In this document: piece after piece, positions 43,821 to 62,718 of the stretch
How positions within the stretch are numbered: the first letter of the stretch is position 1
Layout: each line of letters begins with the position of its first letter
Origin: Nitrososphaeria archaeon
GTDB taxonomy: Archaea; Thermoproteota; Nitrososphaeria; JACIWG01
Direction of reading: 5' to 3'
DNA: 64,000 bases
Assembly: GCA_029776065.1 (NCBI GenBank)
Contig: JARVJP010000011.1
Span: forward strand, 214,961 to 278,960
The notes under the pieces: model-generated
Database searches by the model: none
What the model saw: the letters and a program-made list of their open reading frames with translations, nothing else
What the model was told of the DNA's origin: nothing
Program-made: the position numbers and the translations under genes

Positions 43821-45056
43821 TCACGCGTCTACGTTCTTCGCCTTAAAGGTTCTCGCTCCAATTAAAGAGACTAAGTTTGTAGCTATTATGACCATCGTAA
43901 CTATAGAAAGTATCTCTTGCGAGTAGGGTGTACCATATTCTATCATCAAGGTCGCTACAACAGCGGGTGTTAAACCCTGTCCCATTAATGTGAAGATAAA
44001 TCTTTTCTCAAATCCTGGTCTAGAATGGTCGGCCACATAGGTTGCAACAAACCTTGAAGATAATAGCGCCAACATTATAGCACCTAACATAATGTAATTC
44101 TTAAGGCTAAGGAATGTTGAGATACTCATCTCTAAACCCAAGAGGACAAAGAAGAACGTTCTAAGGAAAAAGGAGATCTCGTCTTGAAACCGGCTCAGAT
44201 ATATCATAACATTTTCAGGCATTTCTAACCTCAACGATAGGGGATCAGAAATGAGCTTGCTGTTGGCAAAAACCAGACCTAAGGTGATTGCAGATATTAT
44301 CCCACTCCCATCGATGACCTCAACAAATGCATACGTCATCAGAAGGTAACCAAATGTAGCTATGTACAGGTATTTCACGTCATATGCGACCCTAATAAGC
44401 CTAAGCCAGAAAAGCGCGGCAACAACTCCGATCAAGAAGCTTACAGAAAACTTAGAAAAGAACGAGGCGATGATAACCTTTGCTCCATCGAGATCAAGTG
44501 CAATATTATTAAGGTAACTGTTTAGAAAGGTTGAGAAAAGCACTATAATTATCAGACTATTTAAGGCCGCCTCCATCGTTACACTAACGAACAGATTCTT
44601 GTTTGTGGAAAGCATTTTAGCATAATACCCGACAACAGCGACTGTTGTTTCGCCACCAATAGTCACACTTAAGAATAGAGCTGGGTAAAGAGGCCAGTTG
44701 AATAAGTATGTCAATATATAGAAAACCGATACTATACTTAACCCTACATATATTAATGTCCTAATTAACGCAGAAAAACTTTCTTTCAAAAGTTCTTTGA
44801 CATATATTTCTAGTCCGAAGCCGAAAAGTATCATAGCTAATGTAAGACTGCTCATTACGGGCGCGATCAACTTAACAAGGTCAACAGGAAAGAAGCCTAG
44901 AACTGGCCCTACAACGAAACCGAAAGCGATTAAAAAGAATATTTCCGGAAAGCCTGTCTTCTTGAAAGCTATGTTACCAAAGAAGCCTATAAAAATTATG
45001 GCAGAGAGAAAGACAAAAACCGAAATGGCAGAAATCATCATAAATGATTTGCCCAT
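43821..45056 (-). CDS. Cation:proton antiporter family membrane protein (CPA/NhaP-KefB-like)
   Basis: ~11-12 TM. N-terminal ..IAFKKTGFPEIFFLIAFGFVVGP.. resembles the CPA1/2 first helix-loop motif. Confidence 0.55.
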   Translation of the reverse strand: MGKSFMMISAISVFVFLSAIIFIGFFGNIAFKKTGFPEIFFLIAFGFVVGPVLGFFPVDLVKLIAPVMSSLTLAMILFGFGLEIYVKELLKESFSALIRTLIYVGLSIVSVFYILTYLFNWPLYPALFLSVTIGGETTVAVVGYYAKMLSTNKNLFVSVTMEAALNSLIIIVLFSTFLNSYLNNIALDLDGAKVIIASFFSKFSVSFLIGVVAALFWLRLIRVAYDVKYLYIATFGYLLMTYAFVEVIDGSGIISAITLGLVFANSKLISDPLSLRLEMPENVMIYLSRFQDEISFFLRTFFFVLLGLEMSISTFLSLKNYIMLGAIMLALLSSRFVATYVADHSRPGFEKRFIFTLMGQGLTPAVVATLMIEYGTPYSQEILSIVTMVIIATNLVSLIGARTFKAKNVDA

Positions 45057-52478: not shown

Positions 52479-53453
52479 TTGTTTGAAGAACTTGGTCTTT
52501 TAGGTAATGCTATAGTCTTACTATTGTCATTTCTCGTCTTAAGTAAAGCAAGCGATGTAGTTGTAGAATACGCAGAGAAACTTGCGTTTGTGACCGGCAT
52601 TTCAGCTACAACAATAGGCTTTTTGCTAATTTCTTTTTCCACATCTTTGCCAGAGTTCTCAATAGCGCTATCTGTGCTGATCACAGGTGAAGGAATAGGT
52701 TTACCCTTTGGTAACGTCTTAGGTGCGAACATTACCAACATAACCCTAATATTGGGTATTTGTTATCTGGTATTATTCCTAAAAAAAGGGAACTCTAACT
52801 CCATAAATCAGATTCAAAAAGAAGAAATCAACAGTTTAAATTTTGGTCTTTTCATTGCATCCACGATCCCTTTAGCCTTACTCTATCTAGGAGAAGCTAG
52901 CAAGTTTATTGGCATAATACTTGTATTTGTATTCATTTTGTCCTCCTTCCAAATTTCAGTTTCCGAGAAGGAAAAAAGTGAGAAGGCATCAAAAGAAGAA
53001 AGAAAGAAGATTAAAAAATATGCCCTGCTCATATTTATAGGTATTATTGGCGTACTTATGTGCGGGGCACTTATTGTTGACTCGGCAACCTACATCGCGT
53101 TAGAATTAGGTGTGCCTGAAGTTATAATTGGGGCGACAATCGTGGCGTTTGGAACTACTGTCCCTGAGTTATCTGTGAACATATCCGCTGTGCGGAAAGG
53201 AAAGATAGGGATTATGCTTGGAAACGTTATTGGGAGTTGTTTTATCAATATAACATGTATCTTAGGTCTCGCATTAATAGCCTTACCATTCGCTGTAAGC
53301 TTATCTGCGTTTACGAACCTAGTACTATTCTCTATAATAGCTAAGTTGTTTTTATGGTACTTTCTCTCAGGATTAAAAATGACATGGAAAGAGGGTATAA
53401 TCTTCCTATTTCTGTATGGTCTGTTCTTAGCTACTAGTTTTAGTTCTTATTAA
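52479..53453 (+). CDS. Ca2+/cation antiporter (CaCA family, YrbG-like Na+/Ca2+ exchanger)
   Basis: Alpha-1 (..GISATTIGFLLISFSTSLPEFSIAL..) and alpha-2 (..GVPEVIIGATIVAFGTTVPELSVNI..) repeats. Confidence 0.85.
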   Translation: MFEELGLLGNAIVLLLSFLVLSKASDVVVEYAEKLAFVTGISATTIGFLLISFSTSLPEFSIALSVLITGEGIGLPFGNVLGANITNITLILGICYLVLFLKKGNSNSINQIQKEEINSLNFGLFIASTIPLALLYLGEASKFIGIILVFVFILSSFQISVSEKEKSEKASKEERKKIKKYALLIFIGIIGVLMCGALIVDSATYIALELGVPEVIIGATIVAFGTTVPELSVNISAVRKGKIGIMLGNVIGSCFINITCILGLALIALPFAVSLSAFTNLVLFSIIAKLFLWYFLSGLKMTWKEGIIFLFLYGLFLATSFSSY

Positions 53454-53519: not shown

Positions 53520-54836
53520 ATGGATGTTAAAAAAGAAAAAGGAGATAACTCAATATTATTCGACTCCTTACGTGGCCATAAAAAGTGTGTCGGAATCATC
53601 CACTATTCGGCTCCGCCAACTGAGAAAGGGGGGGTTGAGAGGGTCATCGACGCACATATAAGATTTCTCGCTAAAAGGATTGAATATACGATTCATATGA
53701 TCTATGGAGTTGGCGGTGGATACAAAAATGACAAAATCCTTGAAAGTAAGATTTCAGTACTATCTCCACAAAATCAAGAAGTCAAGACAACTCAAGAGTT
53801 GATACTTTCTGAGAGAAGAGAGGTTAAATCTTTCATTAGCCTTAAAAATAAAATTAAATCTCGGCTGAACCCTATTTTAACGGACTTAGATGTTTGTATA
53901 GTTCATAATATTCCTTCGATGCCTTTTAATCTTGCTGCCACTGCTGCTATAAATGAGCTTGCCGATGAATTAAAAACAAGATTTGTCTTCTGGATCCATG
54001 ATATTGCCCTATTAAGGCAAGAGTGGATAGGGAAGGAAAAAGAATTCCCAGCAAATCTATTCCTCCATAAGAGTCCTAATATAACCTATGTCACTGTTAC
54101 TGAATACAGAGCACGTCAACTGAGGGAACTGCAACTTGATAACGTTCAAGTTATACCAAATGGGGTAAACATTGAAGATTATCTTAAAATTGATAAAGTG
54201 ACTCTTGAGTTAATGCATAGATTAGGTATTAAGTTTCAGGACCTTATCATTCTAGTTCCCGTGAGAGTTACGCCTAGAAAGAACATTGAGATGGCTATTT
54301 GGGTCGCTGACGAGTTAAAGCATTTATTAGGTTCCGATCAGACGCTCAAAGTTTTAGTGACAGGCCCACCAGATCACCAAGCGACAACCATGGGTATGGA
54401 TTATTTAGAGTATCTTAATAAGTTAATAAAGAGAAGGGGGCTAGAAGAAGAAATCATCTTTTGCCATGACCTAATCTCATATGATAGAGTGTTTGTAGGT
54501 AATAGAGTGTTGAAGTGGAGCGTAGGTGATGTATATTCAATTTCGGATTTAGTCTTTGTACCTAGCAAAGAAGAAGGTTTTGGTCTACCAGTAATAGAAG
54601 CTGGTGCAGCAAGAAAGATGGTTTTTTGTTCACGGATACCCCCATTCCAAGAGCTGATTAAGGAAGATATTGACGGTTTCATGTTCGACTTAAATGGAAG
54701 TCCTAAAGATGTGGCTTTCCGAATTTATAAAGAATATATTCTTGACATTGTCGGTTCAAACTTTAACAATGTCGCAAGAAGGTTCACATGGGACGCCATA
54801 CTTGCTAAAAGATTTCTTAGTCTTCTAAACATTTAG
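53520..54836 (+). CDS. Glycosyltransferase family 4 (GT-B, retaining)
   Basis: C-terminal E-x7-E motif region ..VPSKEEGFGLPVIEAGAARKMVF... Confidence 0.75.
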   Translation: MDVKKEKGDNSILFDSLRGHKKCVGIIHYSAPPTEKGGVERVIDAHIRFLAKRIEYTIHMIYGVGGGYKNDKILESKISVLSPQNQEVKTTQELILSERREVKSFISLKNKIKSRLNPILTDLDVCIVHNIPSMPFNLAATAAINELADELKTRFVFWIHDIALLRQEWIGKEKEFPANLFLHKSPNITYVTVTEYRARQLRELQLDNVQVIPNGVNIEDYLKIDKVTLELMHRLGIKFQDLIILVPVRVTPRKNIEMAIWVADELKHLLGSDQTLKVLVTGPPDHQATTMGMDYLEYLNKLIKRRGLEEEIIFCHDLISYDRVFVGNRVLKWSVGDVYSISDLVFVPSKEEGFGLPVIEAGAARKMVFCSRIPPFQELIKEDIDGFMFDLNGSPKDVAFRIYKEYILDIVGSNFNNVARRFTWDAILAKRFLSLLNI

Positions 54837-56248
54837 ATTTTAGGTATTAACTCTGCGCTCCTTAATCGACTGTAAGTAGATTGGTTTGAGCGTCTTTTCA
54901 TCAACGTGCTTAATACTAGATAATCTGAGTTACTGACGCAAGAACTCCAAGCTGGTAAGCAGTCTTTTAATTGTATGGGGTTCTGCAAAGTTTCAGTCAT
55001 TATTGAAGAAAATAGGTTAAGCCTCTGGGTATCTGTCTGTTTAGAGTAAAATATGGGTTCCTTAACTCTCCGCTTAACATCCTTTTTTAATGCGTTAAAA
55101 ACTCTACGATGCTCTTTAAATAATGAATAGGCTTCTTCTACGTACATTTGAACTAATCCATCGACTTCTTCTTTGGTTAGTTGTACATTGTTCTTTTTCA
55201 GGATGTTTATAAAATATGTTGTGATCTGTTGTACCATGTTTTGAAGACCCTTTGTCGATTGGCCAATATGATAGAATAGGTCTAAATCCGATTGACATAT
55301 GTATTTAAGGCCATGTTTTTGGGCGATTTGGTAGAGGATTGCTATCTCAACACTATAATCATAGGGAAATTCAATTTTTTCGAGTACCTCTCTAATGATC
55401 GCGCTCTCGCCTGAAAGGGGATATCTTAAAGTCTCTAAACCCCCAAAGATCGTTGGATACCTCATCGACAATACTTTGATTAAAGGTAACGCAAAAAGTC
55501 TTGAGACTCTACCACCGAAAACGTAATCTTTATGCTCTGATTCATACCTTAAAGTTAACCTTTTATAAAACGCTTTCGTCATTTGATAATTTAACCTTTT
55601 GTTTCTTATGGAACTAACTAAGGGATGGCATAAGGCAACCACCATTTCCTTCTCAAAGTTCATGATATCGGAGTCAAGAAAACATAAAATGTCACCTTTT
55701 GTTAATGGTATAAACATCCACAAAGCAGTCCCCTTGCCAGGTGGCATATGACTTGCATTTTTCAGTTGGGGGACCTTCGAAGTTATCAGCTTAGCTATAT
55801 TGGGGTCATATTGGTGGACCACCTTCACGAAAAAGTCAAAAAAACCTCTACTTGCATGCATAGCTTCTGCTTTACTAGAGGCGATCAGCCCTACCTCTCT
55901 TCTAAAAAGGCTTAGGTAAAGATATGCAGTTTTAATCACCTTAATCAACACGCTGTAATCAGGTTTATTTAGTTTGTTCACCGAACCATCCAAGACTATG
56001 ATTTCATCCACATATCCAAGGTCAGCTAACTGACTACACTCTCTAAGCATCTTCCCTAAAGTTTCAAGTTCCTTTCTTCTTGACTTTCTTCCAACGTCGA
56101 TTTTGGTTGGAATTGCGATCGAAATTGTTAAAGGCCTTTTTAATCCAGCTTCGTCTACAACCATTGTATCTAATTTTTCCCTAACAGACCGCTTTAAGTC
56201 AACTTCCTTGACTGAACCAACAACAGGAGCTGATACAACTTTAACCAT
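54833..56248 (-). CDS. Glucosyl-/mannosyl-3-phosphoglycerate synthase-like GT-A glycosyltransferase (GpgS/MpgS family, GT81/GT55-like)
   Basis: PGKGTALWMFIPLTKGDILCFLDSDI closely matches the GpgS block PGKGEALWRSLAATSGDIVVFIDSDL (DxD). N-terminal ISIAIPTK.. matches ISVVLPALNEE... Confidence 0.65.
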   Translation of the reverse strand: MVKVVSAPVVGSVKEVDLKRSVREKLDTMVVDEAGLKRPLTISIAIPTKIDVGRKSRRKELETLGKMLRECSQLADLGYVDEIIVLDGSVNKLNKPDYSVLIKVIKTAYLYLSLFRREVGLIASSKAEAMHASRGFFDFFVKVVHQYDPNIAKLITSKVPQLKNASHMPPGKGTALWMFIPLTKGDILCFLDSDIMNFEKEMVVALCHPLVSSIRNKRLNYQMTKAFYKRLTLRYESEHKDYVFGGRVSRLFALPLIKVLSMRYPTIFGGLETLRYPLSGESAIIREVLEKIEFPYDYSVEIAILYQIAQKHGLKYICQSDLDLFYHIGQSTKGLQNMVQQITTYFINILKKNNVQLTKEEVDGLVQMYVEEAYSLFKEHRRVFNALKKDVKRRVKEPIFYSKQTDTQRLNLFSSIMTETLQNPIQLKDCLPAWSSCVSNSDYLVLSTLMKRRSNQSTYSRLRSAELIPKI

Positions 56249-56272
56249 GATAATTTAATAATAACAATTATC

Positions 56273-56926
56273 CTATATAAATTTGCTATAATCAAGATCT
56301 AGTAACTCCGAAAAACTGGAAACCTTTAGGTCACAGACTCCCTCTAAACTTTTACTTTTTGGGTTAAAAGCAATAGCAAAATCAGATTCAGTGCTCATGC
56401 AAAAATCGCTTTCCCCATCTCCTATCGTTATTGTCCAAGGGTTAAACAGTCTACGACACTGACGTAGAAACCAAAGTTTACATACGTAATATCTTCTACA
56501 GCCTCTAATTTCTTGGCATTTATACTCAGAAGTTATGCGTCCAGTAAATCTTCCATTTATAATTTCAACATCAAGGCCATATACAAGGTTGACGTTTAGT
56601 TTCTTAGCTAAATTTTCAGCTAAAAATTGATAAGAATCAGTAGCGATAGCTGTTATAAACCCTTCTTGCCTAATAAATTCTATGAACTCTTCCACATAGG
56701 GGTTTAATGGGATTTTGTTAAATGTGCTTTGGATATCCCTAACCGCTATGTCTTGGAATAGCTTTGCTACTTTCTCTGCAATCTTAAAGGCTGGGAGTTT
56801 GCTACTTTCTTTATCGATTTTATCAAGTTCATTCTTTAAATTGTAAGCTTCGCATAATACGTCAACAGTCCTCTGCGCTAAAAGAGTTCCATCCATATCT
56901 AAAATCACAAGCTTGTTCAACACCAA
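56273..56926 (-). CDS. HAD-superfamily phosphatase (phosphoserine-phosphatase-like, HAD-IB)
   Basis: Motif I ILDMDGTL, motif IV ..IGDGESD... 10-nt overlap with downstream GT4 gene. Confidence 0.75.
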   Translation of the reverse strand: MVLNKLVILDMDGTLLAQRTVDVLCEAYNLKNELDKIDKESSKLPAFKIAEKVAKLFQDIAVRDIQSTFNKIPLNPYVEEFIEFIRQEGFITAIATDSYQFLAENLAKKLNVNLVYGLDVEIINGRFTGRITSEYKCQEIRGCRRYYVCKLWFLRQCRRLFNPWTITIGDGESDFCMSTESDFAIAFNPKSKSLEGVCDLKVSSFSELLDLDYSKFI

Positions 56927-58065
56927 ACACCATGGTAATTAACTGCTCGTTTATAGGCTTCAGATACAACAGTGGCGACCTTTTCCCAAGTGAATTGGTT
57001 GGTAACCCATTTGTTTCCATCTAATCCCATTTTAATTGCTCTATCAGGATCTTTTAGAAGCATTGATGTTGCTTTTGCTAGTGATCGCCAATCTCTTGGA
57101 GGAACCAATATACCTGTTTCAAAGTTCTTAACAACTTCAGGGATAGCACAGTTGTTAAAAGCAACTACGGGTTTGCCGCATGCTTGAGCCTCAGCTGGTG
57201 GGATTCCAAAACCCTCCCATAAACTAGGAAAGCAAAAGACGTCGCACGTTGAATAAAACTGAGGAACTTCTTCATCGGGTATATATCCTGTGAAGATGAA
57301 TCTTTCTCTGATTTTTTGGTTGGTTAATAATCTGCTGATTTTGATGAAATCATGCCTTGAAGTACCTGCAACAATGAAATATGTGTTAGGAACCTCTTTT
57401 AATATTAAGGGTGCTGCTTGAAGTATGTATTGAACACCTTTATATGGTACTAAGCGTCCAAAAAATAGGACTAAAGGTTTGTCTCCGAGTTTATAGCGTT
57501 CCCTTATCAAATCACCTTTCACACTTAGGTTAAATCGTCTAAAATCAATCCCATTATAACATACTAGAATCCTATCACTTGGAAAGTAATACTTCTCAAC
57601 AAGTTCACGCTTTAAATATTCGCTTACTGTTAAAATGTAGTCAATACCATACTTTAAGGCTATAAACGTTCCTAATCGGTGGTCGATCATCTTTAACATT
57701 TGCCTAATACTTGACCAAACTCTAACAGGTGCGAAACCATGATAGGTAAAAACATGAGGTTTCCCTTTTATTAAATGAGATAAACTTCCCGCTAAGACGC
57801 CAGGATGATATTGAGAATGAACTATGTCGAAGTCTTCAATGAACTTAAGAAGCGAGAGAGAAAAGGTAAAGTGACGGAAGAAGAGGGTGTTCTTTAAAGG
57901 GTCATTCACTATATTCACAGGAATATCTCCTAAATTTTCTAAAGATTGTCTACAAAAGACTTCAACATAGTGATTCTTTGCCTTTAGTGCTTTAGCTGTT
58001 TCCTTTATGTGAACAACCTGCCCTGACCCTCTATTTAACGTAGTTCGAATAACTGCAACTCTCAT
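56917..58065 (-). CDS. Glycosyltransferase family 4 (GT-B)
   Basis: ..FCFPSLWEGFGIPPAEAQACGKPVVA.. E-x7-E motif. Rossmann-like halves. Confidence 0.8.
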   Translation of the reverse strand: MRVAVIRTTLNRGSGQVVHIKETAKALKAKNHYVEVFCRQSLENLGDIPVNIVNDPLKNTLFFRHFTFSLSLLKFIEDFDIVHSQYHPGVLAGSLSHLIKGKPHVFTYHGFAPVRVWSSIRQMLKMIDHRLGTFIALKYGIDYILTVSEYLKRELVEKYYFPSDRILVCYNGIDFRRFNLSVKGDLIRERYKLGDKPLVLFFGRLVPYKGVQYILQAAPLILKEVPNTYFIVAGTSRHDFIKISRLLTNQKIRERFIFTGYIPDEEVPQFYSTCDVFCFPSLWEGFGIPPAEAQACGKPVVAFNNCAIPEVVKNFETGILVPPRDWRSLAKATSMLLKDPDRAIKMGLDGNKWVTNQFTWEKVATVVSEAYKRAVNYHGVWC

Positions 58066-58151
58066 TTTATATAATCTACCATTAAATATCTAATAAGTGT
58101 TTTCAATGCTGGGAAAGATATATTAAATATGTTTATCTTATTTCTAATGAA

Positions 58152-59366
58152 ATGGGGATCAGAAAACCCTTAGAAGTAGGACGTGCAGACATCCTTGTAG
58201 GGATACCATCATATAATAATGTTTCAACAATAGCTTATGTGATCGATCAAGTTTCAAAAGGCCTGGACAAATTCTTTCCCGGCATGAAGAGTGTCATAGT
58301 TGTTTCTGATGGCAACTCTAATGATGGAACATTTGAAATCGCTAAATCAGTTAATTTACCAAAGAATATCCACTTGATTGCCAAAATTTATGATGGGGTA
58401 CCTGGAAAAGGTTCTGCTATAAAATTAGCCTTAAAAATCGCAAAAAGGCTTGGATGTCGAGCAATGGCCATGGTTGACTCAGATCTAAGGAGCATAACCC
58501 CAGAATGGATGCACCTACTCATAAAACCAATATTCGAAGGAACAGGACTCACCACTCCTAGATATTCCAGATATAAATACGACGGGACAATTACAAATCA
58601 AGTGATCTACCCCTTCACGTTATCCCTTTTTGGTGTAAATATCCGTCAGCCAATAGGTGGGGATTTTGGGTTGTCAAAAGAGCTTATAGAATTAATGATA
58701 AACTCGCTTTTATGGCGCACACCCTACACACCTCGATTTGGAATCGACATATCGATAACCCATACCGCTTTAGCACATGATCTTGAAGTAAAAGAAGCAT
58801 TTTTAGGAAGTAAGATACACGACGTTAAGGATCCTACGAAGCATCTAGGACCTATGTTCAAACAAGTTATCGGGGCTCTTTTCACATGCACTGACCTCTA
58901 CTTTGATAAGTGGAAGAATGTTAACACAATAAGCGACCCAAACCTTATTAGAGGAAGTATGGGAGATCAAGAACCTGAACCCTTTGAAGTAGGCTATGAG
59001 GGTGCGTTGGATACTTTTAAATGCGAATTAGAAAGGCATCAGGAAACAATACAAAGAGTTTTACCAAAGTACCTATTACAATCTCTGAAGGAGAGCTCGG
59101 TTAGTGAAGCATCGATCACCGCCAAAGATTGGGCCAGAATCACCTACCATTTTGCCAACTATTTCAATCAAGTCAGAGAAGAAGATAAGGATGAAGTGAT
59201 TGAAGCTTTTAAAGTCTGCTGGATTGGGAGAGTAGGTAATTTCGTGAAGGAGACATTGGAATTATCAAACTCTGAAGCGGAAGCAAAGATAATTTCTGAC
59301 GCAATGGCCTTCGTACAAGAGAAACCATATCTAGTATCTCTATGGTGTAATAAGTTTGGTTTTTGA
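58152..59366 (+). CDS. Second GpgS/MpgS-family GT-A glycosyltransferase paralog
   Basis: ..GVPGKGSAIKLALKIAKRLGCRAMAMVDSDL.. and ..IGGDFGLSKELIELM.. (cf. GpgS SGEYAASRELLTSL). N-terminal ..ILVGIPSYNN... Confidence 0.6.
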   Translation: MGIRKPLEVGRADILVGIPSYNNVSTIAYVIDQVSKGLDKFFPGMKSVIVVSDGNSNDGTFEIAKSVNLPKNIHLIAKIYDGVPGKGSAIKLALKIAKRLGCRAMAMVDSDLRSITPEWMHLLIKPIFEGTGLTTPRYSRYKYDGTITNQVIYPFTLSLFGVNIRQPIGGDFGLSKELIELMINSLLWRTPYTPRFGIDISITHTALAHDLEVKEAFLGSKIHDVKDPTKHLGPMFKQVIGALFTCTDLYFDKWKNVNTISDPNLIRGSMGDQEPEPFEVGYEGALDTFKCELERHQETIQRVLPKYLLQSLKESSVSEASITAKDWARITYHFANYFNQVREEDKDEVIEAFKVCWIGRVGNFVKETLELSNSEAEAKIISDAMAFVQEKPYLVSLWCNKFGF

Positions 59367-60756: not shown

Positions 60757-61565
60757 TTATTTTACAGTCTTTAGAGCTCTATCCCTTGTAGGTTCCATTA
60801 AAAGGTAGATAATAGAAAAAAAGAAACCTCCTTCTGATATAAGAACAACTAAAGTCCTTAGAACATCTAGCTTGTTAAATAGATAAAGAAAAATAATTGG
60901 GCCAAATAGAGCTGTTATAGAGTAAAAGACTGAAGCGAGGAGAGCTGCTGTATGAGGTCCATTAATTATTGCAACACTTCTAACGCTCTTAACTCTATCA
61001 CCTTCCATGTCAGCTATGCCTTGGGTTATTTCCCTCCCTAAGTTCGAGAAAAAACTCAAAGTAAATAGTGTAGCTACCGTAAGACCGATAGAATTCGTAG
61101 TTGACAAGAAACCAAAGATAAACGTGATAGAGACGCAATAGGCTACCATTATGTTTCCTAGTAAATCATAACCCTTATCATATAAACTGTAGAGCACTGA
61201 TAAAATAAAAGCAATGCCAATAACATCGCTAACAAGTTTATCATAATGGAAAATAAAGAACCCAATGCAAATAATGTTAAGCCAAAGTAAAGCGTCGCCT
61301 TCTTTGAAACTAAACCACATGGGATGGGCCTATTAGGTCTATTTATACGATCGATTTCAACATCTAAGTAATCATTTATTACAAAGGACGATGCAGTTAG
61401 AAAAACTGAAGTTGAAAATGGAAAGAAGCTTAATGGTAACTCAGGTAATGCCTTTAGAGGAATCACTTGACCGGCAAATGTGACCAATCCTATAAGAATG
61501 GTGCCTAACGGTCGAATCAATCGAATATAAGCAATGAACGAAGGACTATTTAAGCCATATTTCAA
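60757..61565 (-). pseudogene. UbiA-family prenyltransferase of the DGGGP-synthase type, split by a -1 frameshift in a T homopolymer (pseudogene or sequencing error)
   Basis: ORF 61158-61565 encodes the N-terminal half with motif NDYLDVEIDRINRPNRPIP. ORF 60757-61320 encodes the C-terminal half with DMEGDRVKSVRSVAI. Frames switch around 61201-61210. Adding one T restores ...LLALLLFLSVLYSLYDK.... Confidence 0.75.
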
Positions 61566-61800
61566 ACTTAAACCATTTAAATAATATTAACTTATCTATA
61601 TGTCTCTTATTAAAAACTTACAGAACGTCTTACTTATCTCCTATGATATGAGTATAAACTTGGGCGCAAGATATCAATAAGAACTTTGGTCAAATCAATA
61701 TAGTTTCGGTTGTCTAAAACATCGCTACGTTATACTTGTGAAAGCCTCTATTCTTATATCAAAAAGCTTAAAAACCTACTACAAGGAGAGATTAAATTAC

Positions 61801-62718
61801 ATGACTAGAAAAAAGTTTTTGATTTTAACCATAATCATGATAACAACTCTAACTTATACTATGGGACAAGCCTGTGCAGCACCCCTTCCATCTAAAGTGA
61901 AGGCTGGTGTGTGGATAACAAGCATAGACAAAGTAGACCTGGCTGCTGGAACTTATTCGATAGATTTTTATCTTTGGTTCATCTACGATGATGCTCCTCC
62001 TAACTTTGAATTCATCAACGGCGCACCAACTAGAATAGAGAAAACAGTCGAAAGGGAAGGTTACGTTGAATATAGGGTTAAGGCAACATTCGTCCAACAA
62101 TACGATTTCAAGAACTTCCCATTCGATACTCAAAACTTGGATATAATGATTGAAGACAAAACACAGAATATAACTTCGTTAGAATTGATCCCGGATTCTG
62201 AGCAAAGCGGTTTGGATTCACAAGCCTACGTTGTCGGATGGCAACCAAAGGAGTTTACATATCAAAGTTATGTTCACGAATACCCAGGTGAAAACTACTC
62301 CAGATTAGTCTTCACAGTGTCAATACAAAGAGAAATTTTTCCAGTCTTTATGAAAAACTTTGTCCCAATTACTTTGATCACGTTGATAAGCCTGCTATCG
62401 TTTGCAGTTAGCATACAGAACTATTCACAGAGGATATCAATAGGTATAACGACATTGTTCTCGGCAGTTGCATACCATTTGGCAACACTTGGAAGCTTAC
62501 CCCCGCTTTCATATCTAACTCTATTCGATAGAGTTATGTTAGCCATCTACTCCCTATTCCTCTATAACATAGGTGTAAGTGTGCAAGGAATGAGGCTAGT
62601 CGACAAAAAGCAAATAGACAAGGCCATTAGTTTTGAAGATAAAGCGCAAAAACTCCTACCCGTAGTTACTTTGTTCTTGATCATACTCTACACCGTACTA
62701 TTGGCGCCTTTTATATGA
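61801..62718 (+). CDS. Prokaryotic pentameric ligand-gated ion channel homolog (GLIC/ELIC-like Cys-loop receptor family); start at ATG 61801 preferred
   Basis: Signal peptide MTRKKFLILTIIMITTLTYTMGQA. Beta-rich ectodomain with FPFDTQNLDIMIE (cf. GLIC YPFDSQTLHIYL). VGWQPKEFT (cf. GLIC TGWDIESFT). Four TM helices M1-M4. Confidence 0.8.
   Translation: MTRKKFLILTIIMITTLTYTMGQACAAPLPSKVKAGVWITSIDKVDLAAGTYSIDFYLWFIYDDAPPNFEFINGAPTRIEKTVEREGYVEYRVKATFVQQYDFKNFPFDTQNLDIMIEDKTQNITSLELIPDSEQSGLDSQAYVVGWQPKEFTYQSYVHEYPGENYSRLVFTVSIQREIFPVFMKNFVPITLITLISLLSFAVSIQNYSQRISIGITTLFSAVAYHLATLGSLPPLSYLTLFDRVMLAIYSLFLYNIGVSVQGMRLVDKKQIDKAISFEDKAQKLLPVVTLFLIILYTVLLAPFI

Follow-up and report, generated by a model that had tools for sequence, protein, structure and literature searches.

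The five-gene cluster described here is fairly likely to direct the synthesis of a glycosyl-glycerate compatible solute through two converging routes. This reading draws on the family and fold assignments of the five proteins, the conservation of their active-site residues and the linkage of their genes.

Layout of the five genes

The first-pass annotation of the DNA stretch analyzed (the window, 64,000 nucleotides) had listed five open reading frames, and all of them were confirmed with the coordinates and lengths given below; the NCBI record of the contig carries the same calls. Genes D (56917-58065, minus strand, 382 aa), C (56273-56926, minus strand) and B (54833-56248, minus strand, 471 aa) are co-directional and form one operon, opened by D and with B as its 3'-most gene. 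The start codon of C is ambiguous (56926, 56923 or 56920), giving a product of 215-217 aa and an overlap of 4-10 nt between the D stop and the C start. Gene A (53520-54836, plus strand, 438 aa) is convergent with B, their stop codons overlapping. Gene E (58152-59366, plus strand, 404 aa) is divergent from D, from which it is separated by an AT-rich spacer of 86 bp (58066-58151, no strand). TATA-like AT-rich runs can be read ~20-30 nt 5' of both start codons, and the spacer is probably a shared promoter region.

The motifs quoted in the annotation were all found, with PGKG (residues 170-173) and DSD (192-194) in B, DMDGT (10-14) and GDGESD (169-174) in C, and PGKG (84-87), DSD (109-111) and GGDFGLSKEL (169-178) in E.

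The two GT-A synthases

[quoted passage not shown] When the B model was compared with solved structures, the best matches ranked in the order GT81 GpgS/MpgS, GT55 MpgS and mannosylglycerate synthase (MGS). B retains the Lys-Asp-Glu network, the DSD and PLSGE motifs, the metal-binding His and the acceptor loop GGRV(S/T) of MtGpgS (residue roles from PMC2581804).

Compared with GT81 GpgS (M. tuberculosis Rv1208; R. xylanophilus MpgS/GpgS) and with the ~400-aa GpgS of the Methanococcoides burtonii/Persephonella type, B stays below the curated cut-offs. It carries two insertions, a helical one of ~50 residues (at ~95-145) within the nucleotide-binding half and one of 11 residues following the IPTK loop, shows HIGQS where the RAHRNR loop stands and ends in a family-specific RRRxNQSTxSRL tail at the C terminus. 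The C-terminal extension of ~120 aa previously ascribed to B stood in part: the last ~30 residues are specific to the B family, as is the helical insert, but the rest, up to ~residue 441, aligns with the helical domain at the C terminus of Methanococcoides-type GpgS. The B family is small; a cut at E<=1e-30 left only 17 representatives out of 1.84 billion.

The product of gene E is probably a one-step glycosylglycerate synthase using free D-glycerate. Its similarity to GpgS is, like that of B, far beyond chance (E 1.5e-12 against NF010496 and 2e-7 against solved GpgS chains). In Pfam, E passed the GT2 threshold (33.8 bits) and remained under the MGS_GT cut-off (19.6 against 27 bits). Foldseek searches with the E model (pLDDT 91.6) returned R. 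marinus MGS (GT78) as all of the top 8 matches, covering the full length (~405 columns) with TM scores of 0.69-0.77, whereas GpgS matches spanned only the ~250 columns of the GT-A core. E has the whole two-domain architecture of MGS; the sequence identity is only 16-17%.

The acceptor loop of E contains Thr at the position where every compared 3-phosphoglycerate-type GT-A sequence keeps Arg. Within the invariant DGTIT (144-148), Ile-Thr corresponds to MGS Ile138-Thr139, with Thr replacing GpgS Arg185; the invariant PIGGD (167-171) has the Gly of MGS PLGGE, and D199 (MGS Asp192) and H223 are likewise invariant (MGS residues from PMC2581804). Based on the Thr-for-Arg exchange and the full-length fit to MGS, the most plausible role for E is that of a one-step synthase, and the cluster would hence hold two routes rather than one step in duplicate. 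As E has PIGGD and Asp199 in common with MGS, an enzyme for mannose, the hexose that it transfers may be glucose or mannose. The E family is large, and its relatives at 45-47% identity carry the JGI name “glucosylglycerate synthase”; it is through these names that E is likened to the glucosylglycerate synthase (GgS) of Persephonella marina.

The phosphatase and the GT4 glycosyltransferases

The C protein scored 68.9 bits against the HAD-SF-IB model TIGR01488, above the cut-off of 45, and fell under the cut-off of the SerB model. Among solved structures it comes closest to the phosphoserine phosphatase (PSP) of M. jannaschii (E 2e-13). The two have the HAD-IB fold in common, as well as the catalytic motifs DxDGT, K and GDxxxD. 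In contrast, the substrate-binding Glu20 and Arg56 of PSP are substituted in C by Arg19 (kept in 50/53 family members) and Val, respectively, and three invariant Cys have been gained (positions 143, 149 and 176, in 55/55). C is predicted to remove the 3-phosphate from the product of B. Beside distant B-like genes this place is taken by the MPGP family of glycosyl-3-phosphoglycerate phosphatases (HAD-IIB): in loci of Methanobacteriota, Altiarchaeota and unclassified archaea (L012-L016) such a gene is followed by one for an MPGP-like phosphatase, that of L014 passing the TIGR01486 cut-off (201.8 against 164.75 bits). As C lies outside the MPGP family, it looks like a non-orthologous replacement.

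Both A and D contain Pfam Glycos_transf_1 and Glyco_transf_4, in agreement with their initial description as GT4 enzymes. For D, a retaining GT4, the best NCBIfam matches were the glgA_Coryne/GlgM family (TIGR02149, 161 bits) and MshA (124 bits), both under cut-off. The best solved relatives were the maltose-1-phosphate synthase GlgM (6tvp, 9e-28) and 6kih (Tll1590, a sucrose-phosphate synthase; 1e-25), followed by MshA. None of these matches links D specifically to a known MggA; its operon position and general likeness to GT4s using small phosphorylated acceptors lead us to predict that D adds a second hexose. The top NCBIfam match of A was mannosylglucosylglycerate synthase (MggS, NF041101; 70 bits, E 1e-19), the next one scoring 45 bits, and an A-like GT4 of a Lokiarchaeota locus had the same top match. 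Judged from this weak family match (cut-off 640), A is predicted to add the second hexose to glycosylglycerate in an MggS-like role.

In the HMM family classification that the annotation had called for, B and E matched NF010496, but the curated cut-offs for GpgS, MggS and SerB were reached by none of the five proteins. Orthology of A-E to characterized enzymes is therefore not established.

Genomic context and proposed pathway

The cluster recurs in uncultured archaea. Of 27 related loci with sufficient flanking sequence, 17 have all five genes together, the commonest arrangement being a co-directional E>D>C>B>A operon, and the cluster occurs in Bathyarchaeia, Lokiarchaeota and Bipolaricaulota. 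Upstream of B, C is found at a distance of <=300 bp in 49/58 loci and D at <=1.2 kb in 46/52. Gene A accompanies B in 20/27 sufficiently flanked loci, and among the 39 loci tallied, 15 have it as the final gene of E>D>C>B>A. Some loci (L113-L115) have D-B without C, and Methanocellales have a C-type HAD gene before a short B-like gene, together with an E-like gene and a MOFRL kinase, GT4 being absent. E-like genes adjoin a gene resembling glycerate-2-kinase in L013, L014 and L161, and in L130-L132 such a gene lies no more than a few kb away; in L013 and L014 the two come after the phosphatase gene. MscS-like genes are near the cluster in 8/27 loci, and sucrose-phosphorylase-like GH13 genes adjoin it in three (L008, L088 and L089). 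No MscS-like, GH13 or glycerate-kinase-like gene was found within the 64-kb window. Ion-exchanger genes are also among the recurrent neighbors of the cluster.

The GlgM/Rv3032-type matches of D and the conservation of two distinct GT4 enzymes would also fit a glycosylglycerate that primes a larger intracellular polysaccharide or glycolipid, with D and A as chain-extending transferases. Glucosylglycerate is the known primer of the mycobacterial methylglucose lipopolysaccharide (PMC2581804, PMC3736172). We consider such a role unlikely, since genes for a methyltransferase, an acyltransferase or a branching enzyme are not conserved in the cluster across the loci compared, mechanosensitive-channel-like and ion-exchanger genes recur beside it, and the cluster, a compact set of five genes, parallels the solute pathway of Petrotoga. 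The Methanocellales and Methanobacteriota loci with B-like, phosphatase and E-like genes and no GT4 indicate a self-sufficient core, and in P. marina the GpgS, GpgP and GgS genes reportedly lie in one operon-like unit, as Fernandes and co-workers are said to have found in 2007. The product could accordingly be a monoglycosyl-glycerate (glucosylglycerate or mannosylglycerate) made by B plus C and by E, the GT4s serving unrelated glycosylation. Against this quite unlikely arrangement, D sits within the operon and keeps its place upstream of B across three phyla, and A, with MggS as its best family match, repeatedly ends the operon.

The annotation had taken B and E for two GpgS paralogues, which would both act on 3-phosphoglycerate, possibly with different sugar donors. 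Both do match NF010496 and solved GpgS chains, and PGKG, DSD and the metal-binding His are common to them. Yet the B and E profiles are remote (E 2e-7 over 154 columns) when set against those of B and the GpgS types. B groups by profile with the GpgS types and E by fold with MGS, and the Thr for Arg in E, the glycerate-kinase-like neighbors of E-like genes and the JGI name of E relatives also speak against duplication, making it very unlikely. An assignment to GT2-type dolichyl-phosphate sugar synthases or AglJ-like N-glycosylation enzymes, acting in cell-surface glycosylation, had been set against the original proposal. It could appeal to the Pfam GT2 score of E, to a weak AglJ match (28.5 bits, cut-off 325) and to the database name “cell wall biosynthesis glycosyltransferase” of B/E-type proteins. 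This was not borne out and seems extremely improbable: transmembrane segments are absent from all five proteins, fold searches placed Dol-P-mannose synthase under all (phospho)glycerate enzymes, with GpgS, MpgS and MGS nearest, the cluster has no linked gene for an oligosaccharyltransferase or a flippase, and a soluble HAD phosphatase is encoded inside the operon.

We thus return to the two converging routes, for which we infer the following substrates, sugars, step order and physiological role. In the phosphorylating route, that of the D-C-B operon, B would transfer a hexose, suggested by the PLSGE loop to be glucose, from an NDP-sugar onto 3-phospho-D-glycerate at its 2-OH. C, in which Arg replaces the Glu that binds the amino group in PSP, would take off the 3-phosphate. 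D would add a second hexose before or after dephosphorylation, either order being conceivable given that C-type and B-like pairs occur without GT4 and D-B loci without C. In the non-phosphorylating route, E would glycosylate free D-glycerate in one step and A would add the second hexose. We predict that the pathway ends in a dihexosyl-glycerate (mannosylglucosylglycerate or glucosylglucosylglycerate, for example) serving as a cytoplasmic osmo- or thermoprotectant. Both the synthase/phosphatase-type glycosyl-glycerate pathway of the annotation and its suggestion that the extra GT4s indicate a product longer than a monoglycoside are supported.

The nearest parallels are the mannosylglucosylglycerate pathways of Petrotoga mobilis and Rhodopirellula baltica. 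In P. mobilis, GpgS, MggA (a GT4) and MggB act in sequence beside a GgS/MggS route, and R. baltica MggB is HAD-like (PMC3736172). The cluster follows the same logic and draws on the same classes of enzyme, namely a GT-A of the GpgS type for 3-phosphoglycerate, a retaining GT4 for the second sugar and a HAD-type phosphatase, and likewise has a predicted non-phosphorylating branch of a one-step synthase and a second glycosyltransferase. It differs in that B forms a separate ~470-aa clade under the GpgS model cut-offs, D is far shorter than R. baltica MggA (382 against 530 aa, compared by length only), C is a phosphoserine-phosphatase-like HAD-IB protein with a conserved Cys triad, and A reaches only a fraction of the score required for MggS. 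Moreover, all five genes are clustered, often in one operon, in Bathyarchaeia, Lokiarchaeota and Bipolaricaulota. The cluster would thus represent a divergent, undescribed version of a pathway known from a few bacteria and one methanogen.

Layout and surroundings of the cluster

The five ORFs proposed in the first-pass annotation agree exactly in their coordinates with our ORF calls, and all the motifs quoted there were found in the translated proteins. The cluster comprises the GT4 glycosyltransferase A (53520-54836, + strand, 438 aa), the GpgS-like GT-A enzyme B (54833-56248, − strand, 471 aa), the HAD-IB protein C (56273-56926, − strand, 217 aa), a second GT4 glycosyltransferase, D (56917-58065, − strand, 382 aa), and the MGS/GgS-type GT-A enzyme E (58152-59366, + strand, 404 aa), where GpgS, MGS and GgS stand for glucosyl-3-phosphoglycerate, mannosylglycerate and glucosylglycerate synthase, respectively. 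Genes D, C and B are co-directional, with the D stop codon overlapped by the C start (TTG 56926, GTG 56923 or TTG 56920). A and B are convergent and their stop codons overlap, and E and D are divergent, with 86 AT-rich bases between them. None of the five proteins contains a hydrophobic segment of membrane-helix length. No tRNA or Rfam match was obtained in the window, and the sigma-70 promoter and terminator scan, which relies on a bacterial-type model not applicable to archaea, gave only background levels.

The closest relatives of the cluster genes were found in Bathyarchaeia MAGs. The window also carries genes for TFIIB and deoxyhypusine synthase, which fit an archaeal origin. A Na+/Ca2+ exchanger gene (52479-53453, + strand) lies directly upstream of A and a Na+/H+ exchanger gene (43821-45056, − strand) is located 8 kb away; the two would provide an ion-homeostasis context that is compatible with an osmoadaptation neighborhood.

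Three further features of this region were recorded. The 326-aa protein encoded at 61738-62718 (+ strand) matched Neur_chan_LBD, the ligand-binding domain of Cys-loop receptors, with 31 bits (cut-off 26), and has hydrophobic stretches toward the C-terminus, after this domain. Judging from its sequence, it looks like a homologue of prokaryotic pentameric ligand-gated ion channels in an archaeal MAG. A UbiA-family prenyltransferase (60757-61565, − strand) appears to be divided between two ORFs that overlap each other (60757-61320 and 61158-61565), with the NCBI record showing a single 187-aa UbiA gene at this place; the apparent split could come from a frameshift or from faulty assembly, or the gene could be a pseudogene. 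Finally, a heliorhodopsin gene in two pieces (58 and 214 aa) is found on the same contig (locus L001, 1851-2671), a few kb from the cluster and at or just past the 3' end of the window.

Two different predicted GT-A synthases

Protein B matched no Pfam family at E ≤ 0.01 and scored below the cut-offs of both NCBIfam GpgS models, with 137.2 bits for NF010496 (GpgS, cut-off 262) and 92.3 bits for NF040724 (Methanococcoides-type GpgS, cut-off 700). Its match to the solved mycobacterial GpgS had an E-value of 1.6e-17. The AlphaFold model of B, for which 36 homologues were used as input, reached a pLDDT of 92 and a pTM of 0.92. When this model was compared to the PDB with Foldseek, the best 41 matches were all GT81 enzymes (GpgS and the R. 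xylanophilus MpgS), followed by GT55 MpgS and then by MGS. Thus, the four closest folds all belong to enzymes that have glycerate or 3-phosphoglycerate as their acceptor.

The residues of B were matched through a HMMER alignment to the roles described for MtGpgS (PMC2581804). These include the Lys114-Asp134-Glu232 network, the metal ligand Asp136, His258, the GGRVT loop, which binds the carboxylate of the acceptor through Thr187 and the backbone of Val186, and the PLSGE loop, for which a role in keeping out mannose has been proposed (PMC2581804). The network corresponds to K172, D192 and E301 of B and the metal ligand to D194, with K162, Y165 and R167 of MtGpgS being represented by K225, Y228 and R230. 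The G183-G184-R185-V186-T187 loop appears as G245-G246-R247-V248-S249, with most B family members having Thr in the last position, and PLSGE is found at 277-281; Y298, H327 (His258) and M338 (Met269) are also kept. The majority of these matched residues are invariant across the B family, and among 36 members little or no variation is seen at the DSD motif (192-194), K172, E301 and H327.

Profile-profile comparison strongly related the B family to short GT81-like proteins (E-value of 1e-42, 243 columns) and to the ~400-aa Methanococcoides/Persephonella-like proteins named GpgS by JGI (2.8e-37, 375 columns), with which B shares an LP(S/A)W motif. Since the latter match covers residues 1-441 of B, the C-terminal extension to which the first-pass annotation could assign no function mostly corresponds to the helical C-terminal domain of this second GpgS type, and it is the conserved RRRxNQSTxSRL tail that proved specific to B. 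Other features particular to B are a helical insert of ~50 residues at about 95-145, an 11-residue insert following IPTK, and HIGQS in the place of the RAHRNR loop. The B family has few members: when 1.84 billion cluster representatives were searched exhaustively with phmmer, only 17 were matched at E ≤ 1e-30, nearly all full-length (450-485 aa), below which the matches were partial and GT81-like. B presents every structural feature tested and is predicted to work like a GpgS, probably converting NDP-glucose and 3-phosphoglycerate to glucosyl-3-phosphoglycerate.

The E family is very large (>7,900 clusters at E < 1e-3), and several relatives with 45-47% identity carry the JGI name "glucosylglycerate synthase." E itself scored 19.6 bits with the Pfam family MGS_GT (PF21969), under the gathering score of 27, and a precomputed PF21969 match exists for many homologues with 45-55% identity to E. 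In the Foldseek search with the E model (pLDDT of 91.6), the best eight matches were all R. marinus MGS chains, aligned over the full length (about 405 columns) with TM-scores of 0.69-0.77, whereas GpgS aligned only over the ~250-residue GT-A core. The profiles of B and E are remote from each other (E-value of 2e-7, 154 columns).

The acceptor loop of E is an invariant D-G-T-I-T, and T146, I147-T148, PIGGD (167-171) and D199 are invariant among 32 sequences. I147-T148 corresponds to Ile138-Thr139 of MGS, the PIGGD glycine is as in the PLGGE of MGS, and D199 is equivalent to MGS Asp192, whereas GpgS has Glu at this position. T146 occupies the position of GpgS Arg185, which is Arg in every 3-phosphoglycerate-type sequence compared, including B. 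The first-pass annotation had taken both B and E for GpgS paralogues; the fold, profile and acceptor-loop residues of E all speak against this. Based on the full-length MGS fold, the remote B and E profiles and the MGS-like acceptor residues, E is read as a putative one-step glycosylglycerate synthase, with free D-glycerate as the predicted acceptor and either glucose or mannose as the transferred sugar.

A phosphoserine phosphatase-like enzyme and two GT4 glycosyltransferases

Protein C scored 68.9 bits with the HAD-IB model TIGR01488 (cut-off 45) and 72.2 bits with the SerB model TIGR00338, under its cut-off of 144.15. The model of the HAD-IIB glycosyl-3-phosphoglycerate phosphatase family (MPGP, TIGR01486) was not among its matches in the NCBIfam search. 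Its closest solved relative is the M. jannaschii phosphoserine phosphatase (PSP, E-value of 2e-13). HAD motifs I-IV are represented by D10, D12, T14, T96/D97, K150, G169-D170 and D174; across 55 family sequences, each of these is conserved in 93% or more, and the majority are conserved throughout. On these scores and motifs, C is assigned to the HAD-IB subfamily. In the alignment with M. jannaschii PSP, Glu20 and Arg56, which bind the amino group and the carboxylate of the substrate, respectively, are replaced in C by Arg19 and Val, and 50 of the 53 family members share Arg19. Phosphoserine and 2-O-glycosyl-3-phosphoglycerate are both 3-phospho-propanoates, so that recruitment of a PSP-like enzyme with an altered pocket for the 2-substituent would be chemically sensible. 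C seems to have taken the place of the MPGP-type phosphatase as a non-orthologous substitute. Cys143, Cys149 and Cys176 are present in all 55 family members and absent from M. jannaschii PSP, and this triad could bind a metal or act as a redox switch. We have also considered that the C-type phosphatase might be limited to loci with the GT4 D, in a diglycoside role like that of MggB; this was rejected, as Methanocellales pair a C-type HAD with a B-like protein without a GT4.

The best relatives of D were the maltose-1-phosphate synthase GlgM (9e-28), Tll1590 (6kih, 1e-25), presumably a sucrose-phosphate synthase, and MshA. The acceptors of these three enzymes are small and phosphorylated. D, a candidate for an MggA-type role, has GT4 domains and is encoded in one operon with B and C; its length is 382 aa, versus 530 aa in R. 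baltica MggA. The top NCBIfam match of A was mannosylglucosylglycerate synthase (MggS, NF041101), with 70.2 bits, far under the 640 required, and the second-best family reached 45 bits; MggS was likewise the top match of the A-like gene of a Lokiarchaeota locus. The scores of A-E all stay under the curated equivalog thresholds, so that orthology to a characterized enzyme should not be assigned to any of them.

Conservation of the cluster and the predicted pathway

Related loci were obtained by exact look-up, by a profile search of genome contigs and by a metagenome-contig search seeded with the B-specific insert. In the genome-contig search, which used the full B alignment, actinobacterial GpgS dominated the matches and no more than 11 loci were archaeal. 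The five proteins were placed on the collected loci by tblastn, and the core B gene was present in 68 non-redundant loci. C was found ≤300 bp upstream of B in 49 of 58 loci and D ≤1.2 kb upstream in 46 of 52. Among the 27 loci with enough flank, E was present in 21, A in 20, and all five genes in 17. The commonest architecture was the co-directional E>D>C>B>A (15/39). The D-C-B triad also occurs in one Bipolaricaulota bacterium, a Lokiarchaeota MAG has D, C, an A-like gene and B together, and some loci have D-B without C. In one Bathyarchaeia locus, a defense-type OLD-family AAA/TOPRIM nuclease gene (L011, 9549-11243) is inserted between B and A, indicating that this junction tolerates insertions.

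Several loci carry additional genes. In Altiarchaeota, Methanobacteriota and unclassified archaea (L012-L016), a B-like gene of ~470 aa is followed by a gene for an MPGP-like HAD-IIB phosphatase, that of L014 scoring 201.8 bits with TIGR01486 (cut-off 164.75). The MPGP-like gene of L013 and L014 is in turn followed by an E-like gene and then a glycerate-2-kinase-like gene; a gene of the latter type also adjoins the E-like gene in L161 and is near one in L130-L132, which indirectly supports free D-glycerate as the predicted acceptor of E. In Methanobacteriota and related loci, the last gene of this B-like/MPGP/E-like/kinase-like operon encodes a conserved 452-458-aa protein (L014, 12818-14194; L013, 7607-8965), which had no NCBIfam match. 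Methanocellales have a C-type HAD followed by a short B-like gene, and their E-like gene adjoins a MOFRL glycerate-kinase-like gene.

In Lokiarchaeota and other loci, the cluster is flanked by genes for GH13 proteins (L088, 2307-4049; L089, 9469-11193; L008, 7850-9277). These GH13 proteins, of 574-580 aa, most resemble sucrose phosphorylase, with a TIGR03852 score of about 224 bits (under the cut-off of 334). The sucrose-phosphorylase-like GH13 family includes glucosylglycerate phosphorylases, and the flanking proteins may serve in the turnover of solutes, as phosphorylases of glycosylglycerate or sucrose. Small membrane proteins of 190-240 aa with the conserved MscS TM helix (PF05552) are encoded between or beside B and A in 8 of 27 loci (e.g., L008, 3788-4510; L009, 9385-10104; L011, 12852-13424; L089, 1947-2666), and a full MscS gene adjoins A in L002 (10823-11812). 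Genes of the MPGP, sucrose-phosphorylase-like GH13, glycerate-kinase-like and MscS-like types were searched for in the 64-kb window and none was found. The independent context seen in the related loci (MPGP, kinase, GH13 and channels) supports a glycosyl-glycerate chemistry.

Other explanations have been weighed against this chemistry. The glycosylglycerate could be the primer of a larger glycan, as in the mycobacterial methylglucose lipopolysaccharide (MGLP), which we consider less likely because tailoring genes are not linked to the cluster. If only a monoglycoside were produced and the GT4 genes were unrelated to the pathway, the presence of D inside the operon in three phyla would be hard to reconcile. 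That B and E are two GpgS enzymes is contradicted by the evidence on E. A role in Dol-P synthesis or N-glycosylation (AglJ-like) is contradicted by the fold ranking and by the absence of membrane segments in A-E, on which grounds it was rejected.

The closest documented scheme for the glycosyl-glycerate reading is the dual pathway for mannosylglucosylglycerate of Petrotoga mobilis, which comprises GpgS, the retaining GT4 MggA and the phosphatase MggB, plus a second route through GgS, glucosylglycerate and MggS, the R. baltica MggB being HAD-like (PMC3736172). The cluster offers one candidate for each of the five roles. In the first route, B would make a hexosyl-3-phosphoglycerate, probably the glucosyl form, D would add the second hexose, and C would remove the phosphate, either before or after the action of D. 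In the second, E would make the hexosyl-glycerate directly and A would add a second hexose to the E product. The channel and exchanger neighbors, together with the known biology of glycosyl-glycerates, suggest that the predicted product is a solute.

In a more far-reaching reading, which we hold to be rather unlikely, Bathyarchaeia and some Asgard archaea would have an undescribed diglycosyl-glycerate, made by the cluster, as their main organic osmolyte or thermoprotectant. B would then found a new GpgS-related clade, set apart by the insert in its nucleotide loop and by its C-terminal tail, and C would be a new PSP-recruited glycosyl-3-phosphoglycerate phosphatase, whose Cys triad is perhaps metal-binding or redox-sensing.

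Bathyarchaeia belong to the uncultured archaea that are most abundant in sediments and hot springs. In the literature that could be searched, no description of this cluster or of glycosyl-glycerate synthesis in this group was found; one paper mentions only that a GGS gene was gained in Thermoprofundales. Glycosyl-glycerates have been reported as protein stabilizers, according to the titles of cited references. The chemistry itself is already established in bacteria and in one methanogen, and the finding is therefore useful to the specialist rather than startling. The cluster reading amends database entries in which these proteins are labeled, for example, "hypothetical protein" or "cell wall biosynthesis glycosyltransferase," and provides new sequence clades for enzyme discovery, namely a GpgS-like enzyme, a PSP-derived phosphatase and two GT4 enzymes. 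The conservation of the five genes leads to the testable prediction that a major uncultured archaeal group would make a glycerate-based stress solute, and would do so by two routes.
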